Source: Escherichia phage vB_EcoM_Shinka. Taken from it: 64,000 nucleotides of DNA. Positions 2,179-45,201 of the stretch are shown here, piece after piece (the first letter of the stretch is position 1; each line of letters starts with the position of its first letter). The position numbers and the translations under genes are program-made. The stretch is from sequence record MZ502379.1; one strand, given 5' to 3'. The notes beneath the pieces were generated by a model, which was not told the DNA's origin, made no database searches, and saw nothing but the letters and a program-made list of their open reading frames with translations.

Positions 2179-2188
2179 AATTTCCTCA

Positions 2189-2392
2189 TTAATTCATATT
2201 ACGCTTAATAACTTCAGCAACTTCTAGTAATTCATCTTTAGTTGCAGTGTCGGATTGAATTTTATCTCTAATATCTTTAAAGCGGTTTTTAAATTCTTCG
2301 GCTTCTCCCATATCGAAAAAGCGTTGAATGATTCTATATTCTCGATGAACTGCTTTATCAAAAAGTTCTAAATTTACTTTATATGATTTCAT
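2189..2392 (-). CDS. rIIA.1: small hypothetical protein at the rIIA.1 position (67 aa)
   Basis: ORF directly upstream of rIIA, preceded by an early promoter; position matches T4 rIIA.1. Confidence 0.65.
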
Positions 2393-2417
2393 TTCAATAT
2401 CCTCATTTGCCCAATTA

Positions 2418-2447
2418 ATTATACCACATCCTTGTGGTAAAGTAAAC
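2418..2447 (-). promoter_or_regulatory. T4-type early promoter (GTTTAC, 18 nt, TATAAT with TGG extension)
   Basis: Minus strand reads GTTTAC-tttaccacaaggatgtgg-TATAAT; spacer contains the imperfect palindrome ccacaNNNNtgtgg; near-identical copy at 49100-49129. Confidence 0.7.
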
Positions 2448-4267
2448 TACTGGCTCATCCATTCTTTACGAAGGTCAGCATTATCTCCCATGAGCATTTC
2501 AAAAAGCTCTTTCCAGTTCTCAGGAAGTTTAACAACATCATATACTGGGTTTTGAATCATCTCACGATATTCAGATTTTTCCAAAGAGCCAAGTCCTTTA
2601 ATATAACGGATGCTATGTTTAGGTAGAGCATCTTTGGCACTCTCATATTCAGCGACTGTATAAAACCATTCTTGTTTTTTACCGACCTGAGCGATGATTA
2701 CAGGAGTTTTGACAAAGCGAATTCGTCCTTGCTCAAACAATTCTGGCCAATTACTAAAAAACCCGAGCAGAGAAGGATAAATGCTTCCTAGGCCATCATG
2801 GTCAGCATCAGTCATAATAGCGATATTATGATAATTCAAGTTTTCAGCTTTTTCACCGAGAACTAATCCAGTGATTGCGCAAATATCAAATAGTTCTTTG
2901 TTTTTAAGCATATCTGCATAAGACATACCCCAACTGTTGAGAACTTTACCGCGCAATGGATAACCACCGTGAAGTTCTTTATCACGAACATCAATAAGAT
3001 ATCCGATAGCCGAATCACCCTCAGTCAAGAAAAGAGTAGTGTCAGCATCTTTACCACAAAGATTCGCTTTGATATGTTTATGAACCTTAGCTTTAGAAGC
3101 CTTTTTAGCTGCTTTAGTTTCTGCTGCTTTTTCTGCCGCCAATTTACGAGCCAAAGCAGCTTCAATAATCGGCATTAGAATTGCTTCATTATTCAAAATA
3201 GCACGTGAAATCTTTTTAGCATCAAGTTGAATATGACTACGAATTTCGCCAAATGGAGAAGTCAAACGCTCTTTAGTTTGAGAATCAAATCGCATGTTTT
3301 TCATATCACGAACAAACATAACGATTGTCAAACATTCTTTAACGCGTGCTTTAGTCACATCAATTTTGAACTTACGTTTGATTTGTGGAATAAGGTCTTC
3401 ACAAATATCATCCATAACACAGTCAATGTGATGGCCACCATTCTTAGTATGAATGTTATTAACGTATGTTAATTGACGAAAACCATCCGGTGAACGACCA
3501 ACTGCAATAGAACAGTTTTCTTGTTCTTGAACGATAGCATGCTCATCATATTGGCGTGCATATTTCTTAAAATTGCCCTGAACCTTTTTACCATTAAAGG
3601 TAAATTGAATATCAGGATAAACAACAGCAAGTGTCTGGAGACGATCTAATGTAATGTCAAGATAAACTTGAGATAATTCATTAGTTTCAAATGACATAAA
3701 ATCTGGAATGAAAGTAACACGAGTTCCTTTCCATTTTCCAGGAATAGTTTCCCATGATTTATTTTCCATGCCATTTGAACAACGAACTACAATATTATTT
3801 TGACCATCACCAGTTTCACCGACAAACATCACAGAAAAAATGTTTGTCAAACTAGAACCAACACCATTCATACCGCCAGTGACGCGTTCTTTATCATCAC
3901 CGAAGTTACCACCTGCTTTTGGAATAGTCCATGCAGCAACAGGACCAGGAATTTCTTCACCGGTAGGTGTTTTAACCATCGCCTGCGGAATACCACGACC
4001 GTTATCTTCAACTGTTACTTGATTGTTTTTAATAGTAACATTAATTTTATTTGCGAATTTAAACTTAGTACGAATACCTTCATCTACTGAGTTATCGATA
4101 ATTTCATCAATAAGCTTAACAAGACCAGGTACATACTGAACACTTTCCCATTTACCAAACAGAAAGCGCTCATGCATTTCATTAGCAGAAGAGCCAATAT
4201 ACATGCCACTACGCTTTTTGATATGCTCAATATCGCTCAGAATTTTAATTTCATTCTTAATCATCAC
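2447..4267 (-). CDS. 39: DNA topoisomerase II large subunit, GyrB-like ATPase plus Toprim, with the gene-60 segment fused in frame (606 aa)
   Basis: N-terminal GHKL ATPase region; C-terminal 115 aa (NIAIMTDADHDGLGSIYPS...KEWMSQ) correspond to T4 gp60; one uninterrupted ORF. Confidence 0.93.
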   Translation of the reverse strand: MMIKNEIKILSDIEHIKKRSGMYIGSSANEMHERFLFGKWESVQYVPGLVKLIDEIIDNSVDEGIRTKFKFANKINVTIKNNQVTVEDNGRGIPQAMVKTPTGEEIPGPVAAWTIPKAGGNFGDDKERVTGGMNGVGSSLTNIFSVMFVGETGDGQNNIVVRCSNGMENKSWETIPGKWKGTRVTFIPDFMSFETNELSQVYLDITLDRLQTLAVVYPDIQFTFNGKKVQGNFKKYARQYDEHAIVQEQENCSIAVGRSPDGFRQLTYVNNIHTKNGGHHIDCVMDDICEDLIPQIKRKFKIDVTKARVKECLTIVMFVRDMKNMRFDSQTKERLTSPFGEIRSHIQLDAKKISRAILNNEAILMPIIEAALARKLAAEKAAETKAAKKASKAKVHKHIKANLCGKDADTTLFLTEGDSAIGYLIDVRDKELHGGYPLRGKVLNSWGMSYADMLKNKELFDICAITGLVLGEKAENLNYHNIAIMTDADHDGLGSIYPSLLGFFSNWPELFEQGRIRFVKTPVIIAQVGKKQEWFYTVAEYESAKDALPKHSIRYIKGLGSLEKSEYREMIQNPVYDVVKLPENWKELFEMLMGDNADLRKEWMSQ

Positions 4268-22957: not shown

Positions 22958-23800
22958 TTAATCAACTGCTATTGGATGAATAGCATTAAACTTATGAAAT
23001 GCTTCTGATTTTTCTTTACGAGAAACACACATGCGAAGAACCTTTAATGGCTCGTCTTCTTCACCCAACGATTTTCGTTTTTCAATATTAGAAGTTTTCC
23101 AACGAGCTTGCTCTGGAAACTCTCTATTGATTTGCTCAAGCGCTCTATTATGTTTAGAATTACTGCGAATTGAACTACATCCGCCAGGAGCTTGTGCTTT
23201 TCCAGATACAACCAGATATTTGAACAAGGCCAAATGCGGATAACCTTGATTAATTAAATTGAGAAATGCATACATATCTTCACACAAATCAATTTTTCCA
23301 TACCCAATTTGTTCTGTCGTAAGTTTTCCGAGGTCATACCATGTATTCGTGAATCCATATGAATTTTCACGATAATTACCCCAAGATGAAGTAATTTTAA
23401 AAATAGGTAGACGAGCATGGCCATGATAATACCCACAATCCATGGCATCCTCAACATATTGAATCAATTCATAGAACTGTTCACGAGTCAATTGATTGAC
23501 TTTATCCACACAACGACGATCATCTCTTTTTCGCATTGAACTCATACGAATAGTAGTATCATCGTCAATCATCCAGATTCGTTGACCTGCATACATATCA
23601 GTAATTGCTTTACGAGTACCAGCAATTCCGTTTACATCATCAGGAATAGTTATAATTTTAGCTCTAGACCCATAAGCATCATAATAAGCTTTTTCTTCAT
23701 GTTCACGCACTACAATATGTGGTTCATAATCAGTCGGAAACATATTAAGGGCAGAAACTGCCCCTACACGCTGATAACTTGGAATTACGAATTGAATCAT
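22958..23800 (-). CDS. GT-A fold glycosyltransferase, probably the T2/T6-type beta-glucosyl-HMC alpha-glucosyltransferase (280 aa)
   Basis: N-terminal VIPSYQR and DDD (DxD) motifs; occupies the locus where T4 encodes beta-gt but is unrelated in sequence. Confidence 0.6.
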   Translation of the reverse strand: MIQFVIPSYQRVGAVSALNMFPTDYEPHIVVREHEEKAYYDAYGSRAKIITIPDDVNGIAGTRKAITDMYAGQRIWMIDDDTTIRMSSMRKRDDRRCVDKVNQLTREQFYELIQYVEDAMDCGYYHGHARLPIFKITSSWGNYRENSYGFTNTWYDLGKLTTEQIGYGKIDLCEDMYAFLNLINQGYPHLALFKYLVVSGKAQAPGGCSSIRSNSKHNRALEQINREFPEQARWKTSNIEKRKSLGEEDEPLKVLRMCVSRKEKSEAFHKFNAIHPIAVD

Positions 23801-23818: not shown

Positions 23819-24439
23819 TCAAAATGGTATCTTGTCATATTTGGCCCACGTCCTTTTAGTCCGCAATGCGGACATATTTTTTTCTATCAAATTATGAGGT
23901 TTTCCTTTACGATTTTTAGACATCGTTTCTTTAATTATTTTAGCTTTTTCTGCGCCAAAAATTTCTTCATAAGTTTTACCAGAATTTTCCTTTGCTCGAT
24001 TTATAATTCCATATGCCTGTTCATTTTTACCATACATTGGATTACCTTCGCCTTTCATTCTTTTAGAATGATCAGGACGCTTGATTCCACGAAAGGCATT
24101 TCCGCACTTATATCTTTCTTCTGGAGATAATTTTTTACCGTACATTCCATTTAATTTGCCTGGAAAACTTCCTCCCCATGCTTCATTCTTTAAATTATAT
24201 GAATCCGGACAATTAGCAGCATCTAAACAGGTTAAAATAATTTCTTCAACCTGTCTAAACATTGGTCCTTCATATAATATTTCTTTATTAAAGGATTTTA
24301 TTCCATATTTCTTTTTAGCATGTTGCCAAACTACACCCGAACCATCATAATTCGGGTTGTGACCATCATGACTTCCTATATACCACTTTTTAGTTTTAGG
24401 ATGTTTATACTTATAAACATGTGGCACATTTACTTCCAT
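23819..24439 (-). CDS. GIY-YIG homing endonuclease, Seg-like (206 aa)
   Basis: N-terminal VYKYKHPKTKKWYIGS GIY-YIG module; NUMOD3-like repeats (GMYGKKLSPEE, GEGNPMYGK); overlaps the gene 42 3' end. Confidence 0.7.
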   Translation of the reverse strand: MEVNVPHVYKYKHPKTKKWYIGSHDGHNPNYDGSGVVWQHAKKKYGIKSFNKEILYEGPMFRQVEEIILTCLDAANCPDSYNLKNEAWGGSFPGKLNGMYGKKLSPEERYKCGNAFRGIKRPDHSKRMKGEGNPMYGKNEQAYGIINRAKENSGKTYEEIFGAEKAKIIKETMSKNRKGKPHNLIEKNMSALRTKRTWAKYDKIPF

Positions 24440-41592: not shown

Positions 41593-42063
41593 TTAATCAT
41601 GTGTCCACACCCCATCGGTATTTGACCAAAGTCGCTGATTATCTGATCCTCGCCACAGCTTTTTAGTCGGAAGATTTTTCTCATACTTCCCATCAATAAT
41701 AACATCAACATATTTAAGCATTTCTAGTTGTTTAATATCTTCAAACTTATATCCTGTCCACAACCAAATGCTTTTATTGGGATAAAGATTTTTAATAGTT
41801 TGAACCACAGAGTGAATCACGTCTCTGTTATCAGGATAAAGAGGGTCACCTCCGGTTATAGTTAATCCTTCTATATAATCATTATTCAAACATTCAATTA
41901 ATTGTTCTAGTGTTTCACCAGTGAATGGAACACCATTTCTAGCATTCCATGTTGATTTATTATAACACCCTTCACATTTATGCAAACAACCTGTAACGAA
42001 AAGAACGGTCCTGCAGCCAGGACCATTAACAAAATCGCAAGGATAAAATCTATCATAATTCAT
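41593..42063 (-). CDS. nrdG: anaerobic ribonucleotide reductase activating protein, radical SAM (156 aa)
   Basis: CxxxCxxC-type cluster (GCLHKCEGC); 156 aa; overlaps the nrdD stop. Confidence 0.92.
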   Translation of the reverse strand: MNYDRFYPCDFVNGPGCRTVLFVTGCLHKCEGCYNKSTWNARNGVPFTGETLEQLIECLNNDYIEGLTITGGDPLYPDNRDVIHSVVQTIKNLYPNKSIWLWTGYKFEDIKQLEMLKYVDVIIDGKYEKNLPTKKLWRGSDNQRLWSNTDGVWTHD

Positions 42064-43877
42064 TGGTGCTTAACCCTATGCATGATTTCTTTATTTTTGC
42101 CGAGATTAAATCCGCGTTCGTTCGGATTTCCCAAATAACCACATGTTCTTCTTATTGTGTTCATCTTTTTAGGATCAGTTTCTCCACAAATAGAACAAAC
42201 AAATCCGTTTTCAGTAGGAGTCATTTCATGGGTACTTCCACATGTAAAACATTTATCTACTGGCATATTAACACCAAAATAATCTAAATGTTGTGCAGCA
42301 TAATCCCAGACAGCCTCAAGACCTTTTAAGTTATTTTTCATATCAGGAAGTTCAACATAAGAAATGTGACCACCTGTCGCAATGAAATGATATGGCGCTT
42401 CACGAGAAATCTTTTCAAACGGAGTAACATTTTCTTCTACTGAAACGTGGAAACTGTTAGTGTACCAGCCTTTATCAGTAACATCCTTTACACTTCCATA
42501 TTTTTCTGTATCAAGTTTACAGAAGCGATAGCACAGGTTTTCAGCAGGAGTAGAATACAAACTAAAAGCAAAACCAGTTCTTTCAGTCCACTGTTTAAGA
42601 TGAGCATTCATTTTAGTTAAAATTTCTTGCCCAATATCACGACCGACAAGAATATTCAATTCGTGAATACCAATGTATCCTAAAGACACTGAACTTCTAC
42701 CGTTTTTAAATAACTCAATTATGTCGTCATCAGGTTTAAGACGAACCCCGAATGCACCTTCTTGGTAAAGAATAGGAGCAACAGTTGCTTTAACTCCTTT
42801 TAAGGAACTAATTCTACACATCAAAGCTTCAAAACATAAATCCATTCGTTCATTAAATAATTCGATAAATTTCTGTTCATTGAACTGTGTTCCAATATAA
42901 GAATCTAACGCGATGCGAGGAAGATTCAATGTTACAACACCAAGATTATTACGTCCATCAAGAATTTCATTGCCAGTCGAATCTTTCCATACGCTCAAGA
43001 AACTACGGCAACCCATTGGAGAAACAGGAACAGATGAACCAGTGATAGCTTTATTGTTCTTAGCTGAAATAATATCAGGATACATCCTTTTGCTTGCACA
43101 CTCTAGAGCAAGCTGCTTAATATCATAGTTCGGATCGTCTTTATAAAGATTAACACCTTCTTCAACGAACATAACAAGCTTAGGGAAAATAGGAGTTATC
43201 CCATCACGACCGAGACCTTTAATACGATTTTTCAGAATTGCTTTCTGAATCATTCGTTCAGTCCAGTCAGTTCCCGTACCAAATGTAATTGTTACAAAAG
43301 GAGTCTGTCCGTTTGAACTAAAGAGAGTGTTTACTTCATATTCATAAGCTTGGAATGCATCGTATACATCTTTTTCTGTTTTAGATTGAGCATAATTCAA
43401 CGCATCAGCGATTTGCCATTTTTCTGCATCCTCAATATGTTTTGCATAGGTGCGTTTAACATAAGGAGAAAGTACTTTATCTACATTCGCAAAAGTCGTT
43501 CCGCCATATTGATGGGAAGCAACTTGCGCAGTAATTTGTGCCATAATTGCAGTAGCAACACCGATTGATTTAGGAGTTTCAATCTGTGCATTACCAAGCT
43601 TAAATCCGTTCTCAAGCATTCCTTTTAAATCTACTAAACAACAATTAGTAAAAGGCAATGATATACTGTAATCTAAATCATGAAAATGAATTAATCCAAC
43701 ATTATGGGCATTTACAATATGACTTGGAAGAATACGACAAGCGATATGTTTAGAAACAATACCGGCCATTAAATCTCTTTTTGTTGGAAAGACGCGAGAA
43801 TCTTTGTTGGCGTTTTCTGTATTTAATTCTTTATCTTTATTTGAAATAAAATTTAAAACATCTTTTTCTAAAGACAT
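42060..43877 (-). CDS. nrdD: anaerobic ribonucleoside-triphosphate reductase, uninterrupted (605 aa)
   Basis: C-terminal glycyl-radical region and Zn site (CFTCGSTHEM...CSICG); no intron. Confidence 0.95.
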   Translation of the reverse strand: MSLEKDVLNFISNKDKELNTENANKDSRVFPTKRDLMAGIVSKHIACRILPSHIVNAHNVGLIHFHDLDYSISLPFTNCCLVDLKGMLENGFKLGNAQIETPKSIGVATAIMAQITAQVASHQYGGTTFANVDKVLSPYVKRTYAKHIEDAEKWQIADALNYAQSKTEKDVYDAFQAYEYEVNTLFSSNGQTPFVTITFGTGTDWTERMIQKAILKNRIKGLGRDGITPIFPKLVMFVEEGVNLYKDDPNYDIKQLALECASKRMYPDIISAKNNKAITGSSVPVSPMGCRSFLSVWKDSTGNEILDGRNNLGVVTLNLPRIALDSYIGTQFNEQKFIELFNERMDLCFEALMCRISSLKGVKATVAPILYQEGAFGVRLKPDDDIIELFKNGRSSVSLGYIGIHELNILVGRDIGQEILTKMNAHLKQWTERTGFAFSLYSTPAENLCYRFCKLDTEKYGSVKDVTDKGWYTNSFHVSVEENVTPFEKISREAPYHFIATGGHISYVELPDMKNNLKGLEAVWDYAAQHLDYFGVNMPVDKCFTCGSTHEMTPTENGFVCSICGETDPKKMNTIRRTCGYLGNPNERGFNLGKNKEIMHRVKHQ

Positions 43878-44689
43878 AATTCTAATTTATCCTTTTGAAA
43901 TTCTTCGTCTAAATATGGGTTCCAACCCATTTTAAACCTTTTGATGAAATTATCAATTCTAAATTTCGGTAAGTTTAAATCCGCAAAAATAGATGATTTA
44001 CTTTTAAAATCTGGACTTAAATAATCATATAAAATTTCTGCGTATTTTAACCATAATATACAAGTACCAGATTTAATTGCTCTCGGAGTTTTCCAAGGTT
44101 TTACACCATACATCGGATTTCCACTTCCTTTATGCCTGATAGAAGATGAAATTCCAATTTTAATTTTAGCTTCCTTTGTATGCGAAAATCCACGATGTGG
44201 ATTTTCTTTCCAGTATTTTTTAGAAGCTTCTGATATTTTCTTTCTGGCTAAATTAGTATGATGCTTTCCATAAAATCCATGATTTTTGCCTTTATTACGA
44301 TTTCTTTTAATCATGGTTATTGATTGCTTTTCTCTAGTTTCTTTAGAAGGAGAAATACCATATGTTGTAAATTGGCCATCAGCATATGCTAAATTAAAAT
44401 ACTCTTTATTCCATACATCTTTTTCTATATTCTTTTGAAATTCAGCTTCAATGCTAGTTATTTGTTCATCTCCGACTAATTGAAAATATAATATTTCAAC
44501 TTTCGGCGTTTCTTTCAATAAGGCTTTTTGAAATTCGGAAGATGACGAAGACGAATAATAAAATTTACCATTTTTATCAATAATATTCGTTCCATCAAAA
44601 GTGCAATTGGTTTTACTTCCAATGTAATAATATGGTGGGATTTTAGCATTAATTCTATTAATAAATGATAGTTTATATACTACATTCAT
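43868..44689 (-). CDS. GIY-YIG homing endonuclease, Seg-like (273 aa)
   Basis: N-terminal YKLSFINRINAKIPPYYYIGS GIY-YIG module; NUMOD3-like repeats (GFYGKHHTNLARKK, GSGNPMYGVK); overlaps the nrdD start. Confidence 0.7.
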   Translation of the reverse strand: MNVVYKLSFINRINAKIPPYYYIGSKTNCTFDGTNIIDKNGKFYYSSSSSSEFQKALLKETPKVEILYFQLVGDEQITSIEAEFQKNIEKDVWNKEYFNLAYADGQFTTYGISPSKETREKQSITMIKRNRNKGKNHGFYGKHHTNLARKKISEASKKYWKENPHRGFSHTKEAKIKIGISSSIRHKGSGNPMYGVKPWKTPRAIKSGTCILWLKYAEILYDYLSPDFKSKSSIFADLNLPKFRIDNFIKRFKMGWNPYLDEEFQKDKLELCL

Positions 44690-45159
44690 TTTAAACTCTT
44701 TCTAAGCTGCTTCTTAAATGAAGCTATTAATTGTGTTTTGGTGTCAGATTCATTATATTCAAATCCTCTTTGAAGCATCTCGGCCATCATTTCCTCTTTT
44801 CCTAAACGAGAAAATTCCTTTGATTTATCTCCAACAAAGTTAGGGTGAATATTATTTTGGGTGTAATCGGATTTTAAATAAGTAAGTAAATTTTCTAACC
44901 ATTCAAGATAATCAACACCTTGTCCCTTTAAGCCAGAACGATTAAATTTATGCTTCATTTGACCTTCTGCGGCATTGCATAGATTACAAAGCAATCCACG
45001 TACCTTTCCTGCTTTTGGTCCATTTAATTCATGGTCATGATCAAGATGATTAGCTTGAACATCAGGATTTAGTTCTCGTTGGCAAATTAAGCATTTACCG
45101 TTTTGTGCATTATAAAATTTTTGTTTTTCTTCTTTGTATAATTTGCCAGTCAATAACAT
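44686..45159 (-). CDS. 49: endonuclease VII, Holliday junction resolvase (157 aa)
   Basis: Near-identical to T4 EndoVII as I recall it (MLLTGKLYKEEKQKFY...). Confidence 0.95.
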   Translation of the reverse strand: MLLTGKLYKEEKQKFYNAQNGKCLICQRELNPDVQANHLDHDHELNGPKAGKVRGLLCNLCNAAEGQMKHKFNRSGLKGQGVDYLEWLENLLTYLKSDYTQNNIHPNFVGDKSKEFSRLGKEEMMAEMLQRGFEYNESDTKTQLIASFKKQLRKSLK

Positions 45160-45166
45160 AATAAAA

Positions 45167-45189
45167 CCCTTACCTTAAATAGATAAGGG
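45167..45189 (-). terminator. hairpin downstream of pin
   Basis: ccctta-(11 nt)-taaggg with U-rich flank. Confidence 0.4.
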
Positions 45190-45201
45190 TATTTATTATT
45201 T

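Follow-up and report, generated by a model that had tools for sequence, protein, structure and literature searches.

A predicted SegG-type GIY-YIG homing endonuclease gene inserted between gene 49 and nrdD in Escherichia phage vB_EcoM_Shinka is linked to a divergent nrdD 5' allele

The 64,000-nucleotide stretch of the Escherichia phage vB_EcoM_Shinka genome analysed here (sequence record MZ502379.1; hereafter the window) is a T4-like (Tequatrovirus) segment that shares about 97–98% identity with MLP2, AV121 and other phages, and it contains a 273-aa open reading frame (ORF) between gene 49 and nrdD. We found that this ORF is an uncharacterised SegG-family gene at a locus without an earlier description in the literature searched, and we consider it probable that its product is a free-standing modular homing endonuclease, built of a SegG-type GIY-YIG catalytic domain, a NUMOD3 linker and a private tail, which cuts the 5' part of nrdD. 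In a mixed infection, the predicted enzyme would cleave the DNA of a co-infecting phage that has no such gene, at a site in or beside the initial ~240 bp of nrdD. Recombinational repair from the carrier would then introduce both the gene and the nrdD 5' segment of the carrier, a segment that would itself presumably be poorly cut. The nuclease activity, the cut position and the resistance of the linked allele are what we infer from the comparative analysis below.

On the minus strand the gene order is gene 49, the 273-aa ORF, nrdD and nrdG. A first-pass annotation of the window, made from the sequence alone, had placed such an ORF at this position, overlapping the nrdD start, and the overlap proved to be 10 nt, the nrdD ATG lying that far within the 3' end of the endonuclease ORF, while the endonuclease ATG overlaps the gene 49 stop codon by 4 nt as ATGA. 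Direct reading of the end of the endonuclease gene (...CAAAAGGATAAATTAGAATTATGTCT) revealed an AAGGA Shine-Dalgarno-like motif and the nrdD ATG in its last codons. In T4, it is nrdD whose ATG directly overlaps the stop codon of gene 49, and this ATGA context is the one used by the endonuclease gene here; likewise, nrdD begins at the gene 49 stop in all T4-like loci from IMG/VR that have nrdD after gene 49. Given this direct junction in T4 and in the IMG/VR loci, the ORF is an exact 812-nt insertion (window positions 43878–44689), which extends up to the nrdD ATG. The G+C content is 0.26–0.30 in the endonuclease gene versus 0.35–0.38 in nrdD. Further elements of the T4 locus are mobC, in the nrdG/nrdD gap, and the I-TevII intron, in nrdD itself. 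The first-pass annotation had described nrdD of the window as uninterrupted at 605 aa, abutting nrdG and free of a mob gene on that side, and each of these points held: the Pfam NRDD model is matched over its full length, no Rfam family was matched anywhere in the window and hence no group I intron, and the ORF list has no entry between nrdD and nrdG, so that neither mobC nor segH is present there.

The ORF was matched in 49 phage records at 95–99.9% identity, 48 of which hold a full copy, and ~896 records match the region (record counts, here and below, include RefSeq/GenBank duplicates). A chance ORF was rejected in view of this conservation and of the homologues described below. The gene is always located at the 49/nrdD junction and is always 822 nt long in carriers, which are distributed sporadically over two genera, Tequatrovirus and Mosigvirus (JK42, AV109). 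All eight copies checked were intact, and the ratio of nonsynonymous to synonymous polymorphism (pN/pS) was mostly 0.05–0.3, indicating purifying selection.

The adjoining part of nrdD is linked to the gene. Nucleotides 1–237 of nrdD are 95–100% identical among carriers and ~65% identical between carriers and T4 or any other non-carrier, and past nt 237 identity jumps to 97–100%, which gives the tract a sharp edge; its most divergent block is nt 1–60, right at the 49/nrdD junction. Within the phage collection, identity to this segment is at least 95% in 49 records, 80–90% in three and 60–80% in 999. All but one of the 49 records with the linked allele carry the endonuclease gene (48/49), and the 49th, OLB35, carries its scar. 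Since the linkage is complete, an unrelated old polymorphism was rejected as the source of the tract. The differences are both synonymous and non-synonymous, and many of the synonymous ones lie inside conserved peptides, so that the segment is of different ancestry rather than just a collection of escape mutations. A search for a donor lineage of the divergent tract returned only a ~75% match as the best genome without the gene (Citrobacter/Moonvirus). On the other side of the insertion, gene 49 is 99–100% identical between carriers and non-carriers up to the junction.

Characterised Seg enzymes are active and cut a neighbouring gene at a distance, and Seg genes are inherited through double-strand-break repair with co-conversion of the flanks (PMC2988022). 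The divergence pattern, the untouched gene 49 flank and a break near codon 55 of nrdD in a distant phage (L049, described below) point to a target on the nrdD side. It is quite unlikely, in our estimate, that the enzyme is active on a target elsewhere, whether the 49/nrdD junction, gene 49 or a distant site, with the nrdD 5' segment as hitch-hiking donor DNA. The insertion does destroy the ancestral junction sequence, the block of greatest divergence does abut that junction, and free-standing endonucleases can have cut sites that lie hundreds to thousands of bp away from the gene (PMC2988022); however, the near-identity of gene 49 up to the junction gives no sign of conversion or escape changes on that side, and the break of the resident nrdD in L049 falls inside the divergent tract.

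Two further genomes preserve other states of the locus. OLB35 (Mosigvirus, MH992122.1, L056:2480–2560) has no endonuclease gene, and its nrdD starts with MNVVYKL-LYFISNKDKEL, in which codons 1–7 of the endonuclease gene run on, without a change of frame, into the linked nrdD allele. This junction is unique within the phage collection and, judged from the sequence, looks like a precise gene loss that left a chimeric NrdD N-terminus. L049 (Logan SRR27536177 contig, 2188–3180) represents a distant T4-like phage whose flanks are ~68% identical to those of the window. At its 49/nrdD locus lies a copy of the endonuclease gene that is 58% identical and has a broken reading frame. The order in L049 is gene 49, a 55-codon remnant of the 5' end of the resident nrdD, the broken endonuclease gene and a complete nrdD, which starts within the last codons of the endonuclease gene after the AAGGA motif, so that the AAGGA/ATG layout seen in the window recurs there. 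This arrangement suggests that the cassette of L049 brought its own nrdD 5' end. At the nucleotide level, the linked nrdD allele of L049 is 67% identical to the window allele versus 61% to T4; with so small a difference, shared ancestry of the two nrdD segments is no more than suggested.

A broader interpretation, which we put forward tentatively as possible but short of an even chance, is that the mobile unit is a ~1.06-kb cassette (43641–44689) that would comprise, besides the gene, a replacement, cleavage-resistant nrdD 5' end and an nrdD translation start, and that three stages of its life cycle are preserved at one locus. If this is true, L049 would still show the primary invasion: the cassette would have inserted near codon 55 of the resident nrdD, whose original 5' end survives as a stub. 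The arrangement in Tequatrovirus and Mosigvirus would have been tidied up from such a state, and the cycle would close with OLB35, where the gene has been lost, the resistant allele persists and the N-terminus of NrdD is chimeric.

The first-pass annotation had assigned the ORF to the GIY-YIG homing endonucleases, possibly as SegH, and had proposed a BLASTP comparison with the Seg proteins. The class was borne out and the name was not. All T4 Seg proteins were taken from the T4 record and compared directly with the ORF, and in the all-against-all BLASTP the ORF paired with SegG only. T4 SegG is the nearest characterised protein, with 43% identity over the N-terminal 111 aa (E 2e-26), and BLASTP detected no SegG similarity past residue ~126 of the ORF. 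A hidden Markov model (HMM) of the N-domain family matched SegG at E 3e-36, and gave weak matches to SegA (1.5e-6), SegB (3e-5), SegE (1e-4) and I-TevII (1.6e-3). In PHROGs, the ORF matched 'homing endonuclease' families (phrog_7504, E 3e-34, residues 1–125), while the only NCBIfam match was TIGR01453 'group I intron endonuclease' at E 2e-4, below the cut-off. A sequence search of the PDB with the ORF returned nothing. The N-terminal domain has the three-stranded sheet and helices of the GIY-YIG fold, and hhalign aligned the family profile with canonical GIY-YIG domains at a probability of 87.6% (E 3.5e-6), placing Tyr22-Ile-Gly24 on YIG, Glu81 on I-TevI Glu75 and Asn99 on I-TevI Asn90. In the 12-sequence family alignment, V-V-Tyr5 and Tyr22-Ile23-Gly24 (I-TevI counterparts Tyr6, Tyr17 and Gly19) are invariant, as are Glu81 and Asn99. 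On catalytic-domain homology, we assign the protein to the SegG subfamily.

The comparison with SegG also shows the limits of this kinship. The two proteins share a homologous catalytic domain with the motif layout MN(I/V)VY...R...PPYYYIGSK...Y(W/Y)SS...E...YFN, and both genes are promoter-less cassettes followed directly by a co-oriented DNA-metabolism gene; segG and several others have been described as such cassettes (Edgell et al. review, PMC2988022). However, SegG has 210 aa, whereas the ORF has 273 aa with NUMOD3 repeats and a different tail, and segG lies between genes 32 and 59, so that the target of the ORF product at 49/nrdD is presumably different from that of SegG, an active enzyme that cuts its neighbour gene 32 (Edgell et al. 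review, PMC2988022). A SegG orthologue was therefore rejected, as the similarity ends at about residue 126 and the locus is 49/nrdD rather than 32/59.

Beyond the catalytic domain, the protein is modular. NUMOD3 motifs follow the nuclease domain, as in the I-TevI-like architecture, and NUMOD3 is the only Pfam family that the ORF matched. It was detected in two stretches when the C-terminal half was scanned by itself, and this region is common to canonical GIY-YIG and HNH-type endonucleases. Pfam gave no match to residues 194–273, neither I-TevI_DNA-bd nor a zinc finger. The tail, helical in the structure model, is conserved in the homologue of L049 (P0002), and presumably this private C-terminal part gives the protein its DNA specificity. 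An exhaustive search for relatives among 1.84 billion representatives (E up to 0.001) returned 299, only a single one of them at 1e-30 or better, and that one a fragment. Most of the 299 match the N-domain alone, and a few match only the part made up of NUMOD3 and tail, their N-termini being canonical GIY-YIG or HNH-like. Matches confined to the N-domain on the one hand and to NUMOD3 and tail on the other indicate the shuffled modular build typical of such enzymes.

Several points weigh against an active homing endonuclease that targets nrdD. The ORF gave no match to the Pfam GIY-YIG family PF01541 at E up to 0.1, and a Foldseek search against PDB gave no significant match. No Arg of the ORF is aligned by hhalign with I-TevI Arg27 in helix 1. 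In the structure model, the C-terminal half is of low confidence, with a predicted local distance difference test (pLDDT) score below 50 in the tail. The OLB35 record is flagged UNVERIFIED. The literature search returned no paper on an endonuclease at 49/nrdD and no biochemical or genetic data on the protein, and the inferred cut position is drawn solely from the divergence pattern. Finally, Sandegren et al. (2005) reportedly found that SegH and Hef also cut carrier genomes, so that the linked allele need not be resistant. The PF01541 miss carries little weight against the fold, because T4 SegG, a proven member, gave no Pfam match whatsoever at E up to 1. In a further alignment, proteins of the SegA-E type also have no Arg at the position of Arg27. 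Arg12 and Lys26, which are invariant in the family and in SegG, might be stand-ins for the canonical Arg.

We regard it as unlikely that the gene is an immobile or catalytically dead relic, kept for nrdD translation or for a recruited role in DNA binding or regulation. The canonical Arg is missing, and the ORF has a Ser run, YYSSSSSS, where relatives have Y-x-G-S-S, but active T4 SegG has Y-W-S-S at the position of the Ser run and is also without the Arg, and the catalytic Tyr, Tyr, Gly, Glu and Asn are conserved. With the nrdD ribosome-binding site and ATG inside the 3' end of the endonuclease gene, a clean deletion would be constrained, an argument that has been made in the same form for embedded promoters (PMC2988022). 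Nevertheless, purifying selection acts across the whole ORF, beyond its 3' end, a clean in-frame loss did happen in OLB35, and the gene is near-identical in two genera.

That the ORF is SegH or a SegH orthologue is extremely improbable, although both are Seg-like, contain NUMOD3 motifs and adjoin nrdD. SegH was identified through segH GenBank deposits found by BLAST: an ORF between nrdD and nrdG in Yersinia phage fPS-2 is 99.9% identical to AY262138 (RB3), AY262139 (LZ2) and AY262137 (T6). Authentic segH thus fills the nrdD/nrdG gap, on the opposite side of nrdD, and it coexists with the ORF-type gene in fPS-2. BLASTP aligned SegH with the ORF across the NUMOD3 motifs only (E 0.006, 25% identity), with no similarity in the catalytic or C-terminal domains, and in the all-against-all comparison SegH, whose catalytic domain is of the SegA-E type and unrelated in sequence, clustered with SegA-E, and the ORF with SegG. 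Gap position, BLASTP and clustering together refute the SegH identity. The segH gene nevertheless resembles the present one: it too is a free-standing gene of the Seg class, belongs to the anaerobic ribonucleotide reductase cluster and occurs sporadically (73 records). Both genes are found together in fPS-2, vB_Eco_F26 and Pu-Krd-SF phages. In fPS-2 (L002:5001–9486), one operon holds three endonuclease genes, namely the 49/nrdD gene, an I-TevII-type ORF in the intron of nrdD, and segH in the nrdD/nrdG gap. The annotated SegH of this phage (L002:8752–9483; 244 aa, MGSGTL...) matches a SegE-type GIY-YIG Pfam model at positions 61–111 only and so seems to be without the GIY and YIG strands; its start may be mis-set or the domain truncated.

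The intron-encoded enzymes I-TevI and I-TevII differ from the ORF in their setting, as the ORF lies outside any intron and nrdD here is intron-less. Arg27 of I-TevI is without an alignable counterpart in the ORF, which also gave no match to I-TevI_DNA-bd or a zinc finger, and the I-TevII intron is located at about nrdD codon 180 (exon junction by tblastn), outside the divergent tract.

No dedicated promoter was found for the endonuclease gene, sigma-70-like matches being at chance level (12 versus 9.1 ± 2.5 expected), and the T4 late promoter TATAAATA does not occur near it. The gene therefore has the look of a cassette without its own promoter that is transcribed by read-through from gene 49, and the terminator-like hairpin upstream of gene 49 (Table 1) probably marks the start of a co-transcribed block of gene 49, endonuclease gene and nrdD. 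In the proposed mechanism, the ATGA overlap, which in T4 provides nrdD with its start codon and ribosome-binding context, would have been taken over by the endonuclease gene, and translation of nrdD would now begin from a new ribosome-binding site and ATG within the last codons of that gene.

Table 1. Features of the gene 49/nrdD/nrdG region, in window coordinates
Feature	Coordinates	Strand	Basis or remark
Predicted free-standing homing endonuclease gene	43868–44689	-	ORF list; 273 aa, ATG start, stop codon within coordinates
SegG-type GIY-YIG catalytic domain, ~aa 1–105 (Tyr5, Tyr22-Ile23-Gly24, Glu81, Asn99)	44375–44689	-	
NUMOD3-repeat linker, ~aa 113–200	44090–44353	-	Pfam NUMOD3 E 6.5e-7, aa 130–153
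C-terminal tail, ~aa 201–273, presumed DNA-binding domain	43871–44089	-	No Pfam match
Divergent nrdD 5' segment, nt 1–237, codons 1–79; likely location of the target site in genomes without the gene	43641–43877	-	Divergence pattern
nrdD, uninterrupted, 605 aa	42060–43877	-	Pfam NRDD positions 1–562/562, E 1e-170, and Gly_radical
nrdG	41593–42063	-	ORF list, Pfam; 4-nt overlap with nrdD stop
Gene 49 (endonuclease VII)	44686–45159	-	Pfam Endonuclease_7 and Endonuc-dimeris
Terminator-like hairpin upstream of gene 49	45166–45190	-	Corresponding terminator annotated in fPS-2 and Lutter

Other SegG-family relatives are located inside split genes, as mobile endonuclease genes are. In L050:3029–5656, L051, L052:2532–4995 and L053, the relatives P0013 and P0008 lie between the RecA_N and UvsX_C halves of uvsX. 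These contigs are T4-like or cyanophage-like, and the flanking halves give weak Hint/intein-splicing matches; the split uvsX may be a 'fractured gene' with remnants of a split intein around the GIY-YIG endonuclease gene. In L054:2675–4467, the relative P0004 lies between two short ORFs, both with weak Pyr_excise (denV-like) matches, so that the endonuclease gene here seems to interrupt a denV-like repair gene.

The first-pass annotation had counted the 49/nrdD ORF as the second of its type, and the window does hold another Seg-like ORF at 23819–24439 on the minus strand (206 aa, 37% identical to T4 SegA, weak NUMOD3); no paralogue of the 49/nrdD ORF was found by phmmer among all other window ORFs. 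The Seg-like ORF lies between a 280-aa ORF (22958–23800) and gene 42, whereas T4 segA is directly beside uvsX. At the position where genes 39 and 60 are found in T4, with mobA and 60.1 between them, the window has a single 605-aa ORF (2447–4264, minus strand) that we take to resemble the topoisomerase II large subunit (MIKNEIKILSDIEHIKKRSGMYIGS...). The window would accordingly have neither the gene 60 split nor the bypass element.

Database labels for the 49/nrdD gene vary. The JK42 record (Shigella phage, MK962756.1; L060:2062–2883) labels it 'SegG homing endonuclease', which is a family-level name only, as the similarity is not full-length and the locus is 49/nrdD. Many other records have 'homing endonuclease', and others 'hypothetical protein' or 'putative 24.6 kDa protein'; in the Killian record, the adjoining nrdD is labelled 'endolysin'. 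These labels could be made uniform. The analysis changes no concept, as the element is of a well-described kind and many records already call it a homing endonuclease.

In T-even phages, I-TevII, MobC and SegH were previously known to target the anaerobic ribonucleotide reductase cluster. The gene described here is a fourth, independent endonuclease gene at this cluster, in which a SegG-type catalytic domain is joined to a different, presumed DNA-binding part, and it offers a natural test of how domain swaps retarget GIY-YIG enzymes. Carriers, non-carriers, the scar and the decayed copy together provide a clean set of genomes for the study of homing, co-conversion and marker exclusion at nrdD.

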